DNA of 64,000 bases from a virus: the IMG/VR virus record IMGVR_UViG_3300034062_002027. The stretch is one strand, 5' to 3'. Each line of letters opens with the position of its first letter. Position 1 is the first letter of the stretch. The translations under genes and the position numbers were made by a program. Of the stretch, positions 27,231 to 34,306 are shown one piece after another. A model generated the notes under the pieces. The model saw only the letters and a list, made by a program, of their open reading frames with translations. It had not been told where the DNA came from and made no database searches.

Positions 27231-27414
27231 CGGCAAGGGCAGAGGCCTCAAGGCCCATGACTACCGGATAGCAGCCCTGTGCTACCGGTGTCATGCCGAG
27301 TTGGACCAAGGATCAAAGATGTCTAAGCAAGAGCGTGTAAACATGTTCAATGAAGCCCATCGGTCAACGATAGGCTGGCTCTTCGAGAACAACATCATTG
27401 GGCTTGTGCGATAG
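27124..27414 (+). CDS. DUF1364-like Cys/His protein (YbcO-like)
   Basis: TTG start 4 nt after GAGGAGAG. It contains CPCQACGAQDGTVVAAHSN...GKG...K..D...ALCYRCHAELD. Confidence 0.55.
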   Translation: MYRNQKLLEAVRSCPCQACGAQDGTVVAAHSNQLIDGKGRGLKAHDYRIAALCYRCHAELDQGSKMSKQERVNMFNEAHRSTIGWLFENNIIGLVR

Positions 27415-33400: not shown

Positions 33401-34306
33401 TTGTCGCGCAGCAACGTTTTGCGCAATACGACCGCCAACTTCTTCGATGTTCTCGCTGGGAATTTCTTTAAGAGCAGTTACAGCGCCCGAGCCAATGCGG
33501 CTTCCGGTAATTTTTTTGCCAGCCAAAATTTCTTCAAGAGCCTTGCCGCCGGGGAGGTATCGGTTTGCCAAGACGGATAGTCCGTAGCCAGTCAAACCAG
33601 CAGCGCGTGCCTTGTTAATTGTCTCGGCAGCAGCTTGCTCTTCAGACATGCCTTTGGCGCGAAGCTCGCCGTAGATTTCGTCATATGACCCTGCGCCTAT
33701 GTCTGAGCCCTGCATGACAGCGTTAGTTTGAACGGCGGCAGTGGTTCCAGCCTTGGCTCCAGCACTCTTGCCTGCGGCAGCGGCAGCTTCTTTGGTAGCA
33801 CCCTTTGCCAAAGCGGCAGCAGAGGCTCGTCCAGCGGTCAAGGCGGCAGTAGCACCGCCGGTCAAAATCATTGGGAGAATGTTTGGAACTTGCTCGGCAA
33901 TGAAAGATGTAAACAAAGCCGGGTCAGTGATGGTTTCACCAAAGCCAGCTTTAAACGCAGAAAACTGACCTTCCTTCTCTGCTTCTTGTACCTTGGCAGC
34001 ACGCTCAGCTTCACGGGCCTTCAAACCCGCAGACTTCATCTCTTCGCCGTATTTGGCAATATCTTCCCCGAGGCCCAATGCGCCAGTCTTGGAGAAGTTG
34101 CCTGTAGCTAAGCCGTAAAGCTGGCCGGGAAGCTGAACAAGAGAGCCAGCGCCAGACACAAGTCCAGCGCCAACATCTTTAAAAGCTTCGCCAACCGTGC
34201 GCTCTTTGGAAGCGGGTGCTGCGGGTGGTTGAGCAATCTTGTCTTGGCTCCACCACTCGTTTTTATCCTTAACGATGGTGTCTTTTTCCCAGAAGTTATC
34301 AGCCAT
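27395..34306 (-). CDS. giant polyvalent internal virion/ejection protein (2303 aa) with zincin-like and ART-like modules
   Basis: It has an Ala/Gly-rich N-terminus and coiled coils. HESLH is encoded at 32441-32455, in the context IQTMRHESLHALKDLQFFTP. An ART-like module at about 29975-30427 reads KLFFGGST...VPMFHGSQDIFTQF...IFVSPSAEEAERYG...VYPLWVR...AVFK. A ~900-aa C-terminal region resembles those seen in podovirus core proteins. Confidence 0.7.
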   Translation of the reverse strand: MADNFWEKDTIVKDKNEWWSQDKIAQPPAAPASKERTVGEAFKDVGAGLVSGAGSLVQLPGQLYGLATGNFSKTGALGLGEDIAKYGEEMKSAGLKAREAERAAKVQEAEKEGQFSAFKAGFGETITDPALFTSFIAEQVPNILPMILTGGATAALTAGRASAAALAKGATKEAAAAAGKSAGAKAGTTAAVQTNAVMQGSDIGAGSYDEIYGELRAKGMSEEQAAAETINKARAAGLTGYGLSVLANRYLPGGKALEEILAGKKITGSRIGSGAVTALKEIPSENIEEVGGRIAQNVAARQAGLDRELLAGTGETAAMATLGAAGIGGAAGALAPRRSESEQAAKEVDAFKQEEAEFRKGFGETKPVEVKEPEAPTEFPGGYTATRRELSRQDVPESYGIFPEGADKPLSTVKTQEEAQAKLQTLTEIRAEEQARLLAESDKIDKEILAERRKLDVLEATGQTDTDQYVQSREALLQREEEAAQQVAELNDRIASYSTPLTVAPVGSRTDVQSDYVVRRGDQEIGAFPTLQDAETKLREIEPETFKQAEQQAQAKTDDRVTQLKNTLTPMLAKFGLQDVGLNVVAKIENDAGGRYSSLDRLIDISLRGDAPIQTMRHESLHALKDLQFFTPQQWKALTERANKQWIKEYLQDQQSVIEVDGKPQSMSRLDAYKRLGYTQEAIVEEAIADAFGAYDRGATPPPGMIAALFKKLKNFFLNFGQALRGAGFESADDVFQRVERGELKSRKPKAEVKAEPKAEPKEPVKAKEPAEKGPAVQAKEEPTKETPKAKYSLAGEGVPMSTRKLMENQTAVAQQDIGLNTEAKRGRFNNVRDIAKALNQQTLDQLGAMDRNKLTQDESTRIAEAIADEVAYQLQTSSKTGTGLGWYSNNYPNAVKRLGKRFPELSTSKYARSVFSAIVAVTSNGERVAKNIDNAIKLYSELRKGKPLVAMGNRRATALENNLKVIENLMADHGENFEKVLLQEITVKEMNARLREMGEKADGSYLANTVVPAAAVYFGPKLGAFYANLSGSEGYLTMDLWWTRSINRMRGLLIPKATEASISKFRDMMEAPDATRDEVAAATIPLRNKYEEYGWNSELEHLAGAKEPATKDAKPAWFKKAEEVAGDAYEQLLFEHNLEKMANTIYKNEFEMLEEAPFTATDRKFMYDAARKAQALLRKENINLSLADIQAALWYYEKRLYEKLSGRKADDIGYEEAIIAQADQGSGRARPSVVFDKRADRGDESRSEISDTQEAGGEPTKGAKLSLRTSFPTAKEAEDAAYDKAPPSTREFKLFFGGSTIMDEGRAVPMFHGSQDIFTQFRENKPIFVSPSAEEAERYGGRRAEKGESVNVYPLWVRAETPFDYENPEHVQQVMNRMAGDKTLKGKQPAFFNQGHWENIEDKQVQDAIKALGFDSFFVNEGGEKNLAVFKAEQVKSITGNIGDFSRESKDMRFSLPTIPQNLQDRMGETTSRRERKTVIQNIVDAITPASAADFRAKYLNRYNQMSVYDKKRAEQMGGAALLADQSAESAALMSDLGAGVAASAMGFDDRNGGIPVLRNGITTIDKRVKGLIASLAPLAERGDPAVYQRYQYWAMVKRGQRLNKQGTLTGIDSADVAFAKILEQKHPEFVSVQKDLIAFNNGLVQYMVDTGVLSKERGQIYTKYADYIPFYRQMDGDKTLGPNLFQSLSGVKPPKKLKGAVADEAPLADFLETMVRNTQSSIQAGIKNYAAQRALDVAVQVQAPGMGAVRLNTKEDGPDIINVLEKGNLVSYRTPDPLLVNAMMSLNQSELPFMGFLSAPADLLRNLVTKEPGFMMANMMRDSLSAWVTSGTKMTPIAGTVINFGKGLARKSPGFEAMLDAGIIGGYEFSENIEQSGFKLEDDLAKKAGKKDPIYLRPFTSVWDALGKGTTASDAATRALIYERVLADTGNEAEALYRSLEVMNFHRKGSSPLIRVLTAAVPFFNARLQGLDLFYRASTGNMNNKDAESIQRQFFARGMTMMALSGLYWMLVSDDEEYKKQEQETKDNNWIIPAIGAKIPIPFEVGVLFKVIPERIMAYSFGNDTGEDLQKSMIRAAVSTFAFNPIPQTVKPILEAYVDYNMFTMRPILGQGMKDIEPEFQVGPSTSNFAKLLAQNLGLSPMKVDHIIKGYTGTIGMYAIDTIDIVMDQFGDSPKPSKRFEQLPVIKRFASDPEARGFVTQYYELKDAVDTTVRTMNLLEKTDQPEEYTEYLIKNQGTLAFKDYVRDTEKTMTDLREMRVAIRASTMTADEKRDSLLEISRVESAITSNIQEIKKAIAQAQ

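Follow-up and report, generated by a model that had tools for sequence, protein, structure and literature searches.

The window analysed here is the 64,000-nucleotide stretch of IMG/VR virus record IMGVR_UViG_3300034062_002027, and it carries a giant open reading frame (ORF) on its minus strand, at 27395-34306. This ORF starts with ATG and runs as a single unbroken frame of 2303 codons for amino acids (aa), giving a protein of 253 kDa with an isoelectric point of 5.6 and no cysteine. The protein is a phage-type large polyvalent protein of the LPD38 class (Iyer et al. 2017), because it carries the LPD38 domain above the family cutoff, joins modules of several disparate activities in one polypeptide, and is encoded in the late block of virion genes. 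In public records the identical protein is named only "hypothetical protein", and it is a singleton at 90% identity. A first-pass annotation, made from the letters alone, had quoted peptides from this ORF, and all of them lie where it put them (aa 887-900, 1040-1052, 1193-1202, 1309-1322, 1328-1341, 1353-1364 and 1427-1436). The features of the gene are as follows.

27395-34306, minus strand: whole gene, large polyvalent protein, 2303 aa
33287-34306, minus strand: Ala/Gly-rich N-terminal region, aa 1-340, with two mildly hydrophobic stretches (aa 130-148 and 317-335)
32642-33286, minus strand: acidic Glu/Gln/Lys-rich linker region by composition, aa 341-555
32072-32599, minus strand: HExxH module, aa ~570-745, delimited by alignment invariants and covered by no curated family
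32441-32455, minus strand: HESLH (H618, E619, H622), putative zinc ligands and catalytic Glu, on a helix at aa 618-626 of the AlphaFold2 (AF2) model
32237-32254, minus strand: EEAIAD (E685, E686, D690), putative third zinc ligand and His-orienting Asp, 64 aa past H622
aa 746-800, minus strand: Lys/Glu/Pro-rich linker, ending in KYSL
31925-31936, minus strand: KYSL, aa 791-794, at the linker end before the helical module
30602-31894, minus strand: large helical module, aa 805-1235, distantly DUF7178-like
aa 1236-1300, minus strand: linker containing KLSL
30503-30514, minus strand: KLSL, aa 1265-1268, before the ADP-ribosyltransferase (ART) module
29969-30397, minus strand: ART-PolyVal module (Pfam PF18760), aa 1304-1446
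29936-29947, minus strand: RFSL, aa 1454-1457, between the ART module and the C-terminal body
27398-29929, minus strand: conserved, mostly helical C-terminal body, aa 1460-2303 (PHROG 9854/18222)
27743-28258, minus strand: LPD38 domain (PF18857), aa 2017-2188 (125.8 bits against a cutoff of 27, E 2.8e-36)

Modules of the giant protein

By profile comparison, the assignment of the ART module to the ART-PolyVal family is solid. Pfam ART-PolyVal (PF18760) matches at E 4.5e-15, with 57.1 bits in the whole protein and 64.4 bits in the isolated segment, while the gathering cutoff is 31.2. An ART-like segment had been noted before at 29975-30427 (aa 1294-1444), and this span coincides with the Pfam match. 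According to Iyer et al. (2017), polyvalent ARTs carry His in strand 1, Tyr in strand 2 and Asp in strand 5 and are grouped with Tox-ART-HYD2, and the ART-PolyVal family is placed among the protein-modifying H-Y-[E/D] ARTs. In the giant, H1313 lies on a predicted strand (aa 1311-1315), is invariant in alignment A4 and is present in 93% of 27 aligned sequences; D1416 is also invariant and stands at the start of predicted strand 5 (aa 1417-1422). An AF2 model of aa 1295-2303, built on 52 sequences, reached a mean predicted local distance difference test score (pLDDT) of 71.8, with 56-87 in the ART region. Its top Foldseek matches in PDB are AcrIF11 (6KYF; probability 1.00, TMt 0.55) and MbcT (6FKG; probability 0.97). 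MbcT is an NAD+ phosphorylase, and AcrIF11 is a phage ART, proven by experiment, that has an H/Y/D-type site and modifies Cas8f. Searches of PDB sequences with the ART profile and with the ART-plus-body profile (A2) returned nothing, and neither did phmmer with the whole protein.

The C-terminal body is real and conserved, as the first-pass annotation had claimed, and its length is 844 aa instead of about 900. Both PHROGs that span it, 9854 and 18222, are without assigned function. In tblastn searches the body alone is conserved in cultured phages (24-28% identity; 56 records), including phages of Vibrio, Aeromonas, Planktothrix, E. coli (PTXU04/Pondi), Bacillus (Pagevirus), Pelagibacter and Thalassomonas, and 151 metagenomic relatives were found. 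A search of BFVD with the body model gave 75 matches at E<=1e-3, many of which are named "large polyvalent protein associated domain-containing"; PTXU04 is among them (E 3e-39, TM-score 0.67), so that PTXU04_00025 is a relative of the body in both sequence and structure. The N-terminal cargo of these relatives varies: helicase, methylase and GNAT in 45A6, methylase and DdrB-ParB in phiARM81mr, and RelA/SpoT in some metagenomic members. The body thus behaves as a common chassis. A "putative portal" label on a relative in Achromobacter phage CF418P1 raised the idea of a portal fusion; this label is unsupported and the genome has its own portal at 2867-5368, and the idea was dropped.

Nearer to the N-terminus, the HExxH module contains the sole HExxH of the protein, HESLH at aa 618-622, exactly where the first-pass annotation had placed it. 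H618, E619 and H622 are invariant across 23 aligned relatives, and the same is true for E685, E686, A689 and D690 of "EEAIADAF". In an exhaustive profile search of 1.84 billion cluster representatives, 3,194 proteins matched the module at E<=1e-3 and 2,144 at E<=1e-10, almost all of them 2,000-3,400 aa long. Full-length copies of the module keep HExxH without exception (170 of 170) and EE[AS]x[AS][DE] nearly so (164 of 170), with a spacing of 48-89 aa, and a chance occurrence of HExxH is thereby ruled out. The AF2 model of the module, built on the 23 sequences, has a mean pLDDT of 82.7 (above 90 from the HExxH helix on and 56-77 before it), and E686xxxD690 lies on a predicted helix at aa 680-696 with pLDDT above 90. 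Thermolysin-/neprilysin-type gluzincins are recognised by an HExxH and an ExxxD that lies on a later helix, and the 64-aa spacing in the giant is close to that of neprilysin. On these motifs, HExxH/ExxxD is very probably a catalytic metal site, and the module is probably a gluzincin-type metallopeptidase. Iyer et al. (2017) described the metallopeptidase as a hub domain of polyvalent proteins, formed by a two-helix HExxH plus Glu, which is the arrangement found in the giant, and proposed a role in self-processing; action after injection was also allowed.

Among 50,697 GenBank phage records, tblastn with the HExxH module gave only one match, in Ruegeria phage 45A6. The 3,912-aa ORF concerned (positions 487-12225 of locus L003) encodes a helicase, a methyltransferase, a GNAT acetyltransferase, the HExxH module (aa 2795-2970) and LPD38. 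Pfam is silent on this copy of the module too, and it provides no bridge to a curated peptidase family. When the 23 members were scanned singly, two of them gave weak matches, to Tox-MPTase4 (E 8.8e-4) and to Peptidase_M13 (E 0.009). An FtsH match in the Foldseek search of the module was rejected as meaningless (E ~1.5).

The helical module between the HExxH and ART modules is probably an enzyme, judging by its conservation. Its invariant core is FGPKxGxFxxNLxG...TMDxWxxRxxxRxxG (aa 1019-1052), to which S924, G926, N932 and Y940 are added; the polar invariants (K1022, N1029, T1038, D1040, W1042, R1045 and R1049, with S924, N932 and Y940) form a pattern that suggests an active or binding site. 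DUF7178 is matched weakly, by 7 of 13 members (best E 0.0011), and the relatives P0016, P0031, P0036 and P0101 carry a precomputed PF23802 annotation. The profile of the module had no match in PDB, and matches to HBS1_N and FRB were below threshold and rejected as compositional.

The Ala/Gly-rich region (aa 1-340) is kept in 59 of 125 relatives of the giant and the acidic linker region (aa 341-555) in 74 of 125; Pfam has no match in aa 1-340. The Ala/Gly-rich N-terminus noted at first is confirmed (Ala plus Gly at 27-39% per 100 aa across aa 1-400), while the coiled coils noted with it are not, as a crude heptad scan raised no flag in aa 340-560. No GenBank phage carries the giant gene at a level that a near-DNA search detects.

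Of 125 metagenomic giants that contain the HExxH module, the ART is present in 99 and the body in 116, with the module order unchanged. The complete ordered set (HExxH, helical module, ART, body, LPD38, C-terminal tail) is found in 28 of 125, 14 of which have both N-terminal regions as well. The combination of HExxH and ART modules, which the first-pass annotation had called unknown, is therefore common in this family, and Iyer et al. (2017) name the pairing of a metallopeptidase with an ART, in polyvalent proteins delivered with the virion, as one of their themes. The giant belongs to a protein class described in that year and is a good example of it, not a new kind. Four points are new with regard to the literature searched: how large the uncurated HExxH family is, how seldom it occurs in cultured phages and, as described below, the boundary motif and the cysteine-free signature.

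Boundary motif, gene position and cysteine-free block

The giant has three copies of the motif [KR][FYL]SL, all of them at module boundaries (KYSL, KLSL and RFSL in the list above). In the 125 giants there are 253 copies, compared with 28.4 +/- 5.2 in shuffled sequences, a 9-fold enrichment. A looser pattern of the motif is ten-fold denser outside than inside the modelled domains. In 70 of 89 giants it precedes the body by 45 aa or less, and in 55 of 97 it precedes the ART in the same way. Six cultured LPD38 giants that lack the HExxH module contain no motif in 15,677 aa; the rate of the module-bearing proteins would predict 11.6 copies. From this distribution, [KR][FYL]SL is a candidate for self-cleavage sites; Iyer et al. 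(2017) made no mention of such a boundary site.

The gene lies at the end of a minus-strand block, which also contains virion structural, tail-fibre-like, portal and terminase genes. The other genes recognised in the window are the following.

2867-5368, minus strand: portal
5377-6870, minus strand: large terminase
7398-8036, minus strand: small terminase
15880-17574: primase/helicase
20110-21908, plus strand: exonuclease and Sak-type annealing protein
34310-42704, minus strand: three upstream late ORFs (573, 659 and 1557 aa), all cysteine-free
43715-45622: virion structural protein
45632-46093: holin-like gene
54206-55243: tail-fibre-like protein

The description of the giant as the last gene of the late operon holds. 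Its start codon is 3 nucleotides past the stop of the upstream ORF, there is only a convergent chain of small plus-strand ORFs on its 3' side (23289-27230), and minus-strand ORFs downstream of it have negative scores in a codon-usage test trained on the clear genes of the window. No convincing terminator hairpin was found within 27200-27420. A giant likewise closes the virion gene block in Pag-Yong1, PTXU04, JC1 and a 44-kb metagenomic contig (L004).

The giant and the three ORFs upstream of it (four late genes; 27395-42704, minus strand) contain no cysteine in 5,092 aa, while the mean cysteine content of 22 other ORFs of the window is 0.62%. For the giant itself, a Poisson estimate gives about 14 cysteines expected against none observed (P ~6e-7). 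Cysteine is also absent from 76 of 125 relatives of the giant, and from all seven LPD38 giants of cultured phages that were checked (19,589 aa), which include PTXU04_25, 45A6 and one from a Bacillus phage; JC1 gp69 and phi24B gp47 stand outside this set. Lack of cysteine fits proteins that would pass unfolded through the tail and the envelope or periplasm, and the four cysteine-free late genes are likely to be an ejection set. A cysteine-free block of late genes may thus flag ejected proteins in uncultured phage genomes.

Proposed delivery and processing, and rival explanations

The giant is probably packed in the virus head and ejected into the host, by analogy with its homologues. In phage JC1, gp69 (4,515 aa, LPD38 at 4195-4401) was identified by 51 unique peptides from CsCl-purified virions. 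In phi24B, gp47 (2,811 aa) is abundant in virions and unseen by cryo-electron microscopy, and it was proposed to be an encapsidated ejection protein. PTXU04_00025, which has LPD38 only, is needed for efficient infection, as its knock-down impairs infection. A Foldseek match of the body to chain B of the cyanophage A4 pre-ejectosome (9K3A; probability 0.72, E 1.8, 205 columns) is a lead only. The name "polyvalent ejection protein" in the first-pass annotation is reasonable, given the ART-PolyVal and LPD38 matches above the Pfam cutoffs and the LPD38 giants in the virions of other podophages.

From the above, we consider it likely that the giant is an LPD38-class protein that is made late, packaged in the podovirus head and expelled via the tail, with a probable metallopeptidase, the helical module and the ART as cargo, and we propose that these modules are cut apart at the linkers. 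In such a process, the giant and the three cysteine-free proteins would enter the procapsid, the giant through its C-terminal body. The C-terminal ~840 residues with LPD38 would be the chassis for entry into and exit from the capsid, as in the virion-located homologues, and the N-terminal ~1450 residues would be the cargo. Expulsion through the tail would take place at infection, before or with the DNA, and the cargo could act ahead of any phage gene expression. Drawing on host NAD+, the ART with its H-[F/Y]-D site would modify a host protein within minutes of the start of infection; its target might be a defence component, as for AcrIF11, or the transcription machinery, as for T4 Alt. The HExxH peptidase would cut the giant at [KR][FYL]SL in the flexible linkers and release free enzymes, in the head or after delivery. 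We put forward this last step, in which the giant is a self-dismantling effector polyprotein that frees the ART (~21 kDa), the DUF7178-like enzyme (~53 kDa) and the body (~94 kDa) in the head or the infected cell, as a possibility and with clear reservation. If true, the polyprotein-processing logic of RNA viruses would exist in phages, applied to injected weapons.

A number of results speak against parts of this interpretation. The HExxH module has no family in Pfam and NCBIfam at permissive thresholds (no Pfam model at E<=1), its profile matched only designed helical proteins among PDB sequences, and Foldseek of its AF2 model against PDB found no zincin (best E 0.033, TM-score 0.17). The model is almost all-helical, with helices at aa 558-608 (pLDDT 56-77) in place of the three-stranded beta-sheet of zincins. 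Since no profile or fold search showed a zincin fold, it is the motifs that carry the protease call. The earlier "zincin-like" label is thus partly supported, by the invariant HExxH and downstream ExxxD of a very large family. The body has no significant fold match and no sequence-profile match to solved ejection proteins. In the ART module, F1329 occupies the position in predicted strand 2 (Phe in 85% of close relatives, Tyr in distant ones), which is a non-canonical, conservative change, and the Foldseek E-values reach only 0.15-0.18, owing to the 1009-aa query; our literature search found no experimental paper on ART-PolyVal. As for the boundary motif, its association with the HExxH module lacks phylogenetic independence, and in Ruegeria phage 45A6 a diverged HExxH module occurs without any motif. 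The virion RNA polymerase (vRNAP) of N4 and ArdC also contain metallopeptidase modules, yet they are delivered uncleaved (Iyer et al. 2017), so self-cleavage is not a given.

The same N4 vRNAP and ArdC, together with the post-injection action permitted by Iyer et al. (2017), agree with a different role of the HExxH module, as an active metallopeptidase on host molecules and not on the giant. Its substrates would be the peptide stems of peptidoglycan or envelope proteins, whose cleavage would clear a way for the ejection conduit, or else host defence proteins. The phi24B authors proposed that the metallopeptidase domain of gp47 degrades peptidoglycan, and ejection protein gp28 of cyanophage A4 has lytic transglycosylase and metallopeptidase domains. 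In the giant, however, Pfam finds no lytic transglycosylase or muramidase beside the module. Phage cell-wall endopeptidases typically belong to M15 or M23, with sites of the HxxxD/HxH type and not the HExxH...ExxxD of gluzincins, and the strong boundary motif would need another explanation; we regard this role as unlikely. Even less probable is a structural or metal-binding HExxH/ExxxD without peptidase activity, for example in a degenerate module used for folding or for docking to the capsid core. The missing fold and profile link to peptidase families and the nearly all-helical model agree with it, but the general base E619 in 170 of 170 copies, with both His residues and ExxxD, is the pattern of an active site and not of a relic.

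For the ART-fold module, the alternative is degradation of NAD+ (as by an MbcT-like phosphorylase or an NADase) or modification of nucleic acid, which would blunt NAD+-dependent defence signalling or shut the host down. MbcT is one of the two best fold matches and the Tyr-to-Phe change in strand 2 makes the site non-canonical. Pfam says ART-PolyVal, which is grouped with protein-modifying ARTs, and the protein-specific AcrIF11 has a higher TM-score than MbcT, so we assign this alternative a low probability. We think it very improbable that the giant is neither packaged nor ejected, and is instead a late cytoplasmic multi-enzyme protein for anti-defence or takeover, encoded beside the structural genes. 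The lack of significant similarity between the body and any solved ejection protein would suit this explanation. Homologous LPD38 giants are physically in virions, however, and a protein made late acts early only when borne by the particle; the four-gene cysteine-free block and the conserved place at the end of the structural block fit packaged proteins.

The giant resembles several known systems. The LPD38 giants JC1 gp69 / Bcep22 gp75 (~4,500 aa), phi24B gp47 and PTXU04_00025 (2,198 aa) are likewise giant single ORFs that close the virion block and have a C-terminal LPD38 body. Their cargo is unlike that of the giant: lytic transglycosylase and DarB-like methylase/helicase in JC1, LPD1/LPD5/MuF-C peptidase in phi24B, and none recognisable in PTXU04. 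The prototype of Iyer et al. (2017), CBX87992.1 of Roseovarius Plymouth podovirus 1, has the same ART family (H-Y-D, Tox-ART-HYD2-like) and an HExxH metallopeptidase in one virion-delivered polypeptide, but it is built on an N4-like virion RNA polymerase, whereas the giant is built on an LPD38 body and its HExxH module is unrecognised by Pfam. Thermolysin and neprilysin gluzincins share both motifs on two helices with the giant, whose module differs in being only ~180 aa long, in its predicted helical N-terminal part in place of a beta-sheet, and in having no significant profile or fold similarity to them.

The ART module has its best solved match in AcrIF11, an anti-CRISPR protein of phages and plasmids; this small ART contains a helical insert and a catalytic set of the H/Y/D type, and it modifies one host defence protein. 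It differs in being a free protein of ~130-150 aa that is expressed after entry, and no sequence-level similarity to the ART of the giant was detected. The functional analogy to T4 Alt drawn in the first-pass annotation is reasonable and was also drawn by Iyer et al. (2017): Alt is a head-packaged ART that is injected with the DNA and acts before phage gene expression. Alt belongs to the R-S-E clade and is not part of a polyvalent giant, while the ART here has H-[F/Y]-D and no Arg-Ser-Glu, so the likeness is one of analogy and not of family. The pre-ejectosomes of T7 (gp14-16) and A4 (gp26-gp29, 9K3A) also comprise about four proteins, whose genes follow the tail genes, and include a very large one (A4 gp27, >1,700 aa). 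These proteins reside in the capsid core until they are ejected and bridge the envelope. A4 has a disulfide between ejection proteins, whereas the four-gene block here is without any cysteine.

Polyvalent proteins were predicted from sequence in 2017 and have hardly been tested since, and the giant is a compact and clearly delimited member from abundant aquatic podophages. As the nearest solved relative of its ART is an anti-CRISPR enzyme, the target could reveal a new mechanism of anti-defence or takeover in environmentally dominant phages. The huge uncurated HExxH family and the candidate cleavage motif make the long-standing self-processing hypothesis testable.

Genome placement and neighbouring genes

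As the longest public record with the identical giant has 64,590 bp, the window covers almost the complete genome. By its large terminase, this is the genome of a ~64.6-kb aquatic podophage of the HTVC023P/Pag-Yong1 group. The nearest relatives of the terminase are from Phage DSL-LC04, phage 023Pt_psg01 and Pelagibacter phages HTVC027P and HTVC023P (50-58% identity), and Planktothrix phage Pag-Yong1 has 45% identity.

The three ORFs upstream of the giant have no family match except a weak RTX-repeat match (HemolysinCabind) in the 1557-aa ORF (38031-42704, minus strand). This 1557-aa protein has Gly/Asp-rich RTX-like repeats near aa 640-760. It also contains a Thr-Pro dipeptide repeat of ~300 residues (38290-39216), whose DNA consists of tandem arrays of period 6/12/18, and this array is the cause of a GC-skew spike of +0.284 at 38001-40000. 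If this is an ejection protein, the Thr-Pro stretch might serve it as an extended spacer of great length.

On the plus strand, an AAA+/vWA-type pair (10866-12431 and 12340-14052) matches PHROG families annotated "porphyrin biosynthesis" and aerobic cobaltochelatase CobT subunit. A ferrochelatase-like ORF (14240-15022, plus strand) follows this pair, and the whole region (10866-15022) looks like a set of auxiliary metabolic genes of the phage group.

At 50044-54263 on the minus strand, three neighbouring paralogue-like ORFs encode proteins of ~460-480 aa, two of which match the Vgb_lyase beta-propeller family (E ~1e-19). They lie beside the tail-fibre-like gene and are possibly receptor-binding or depolymerase proteins. 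An HNH endonuclease ORF (46066-46632, minus strand; phrog_99, E 4.9e-61) adjoins the holin-like gene in the late block and may be a homing endonuclease insertion.

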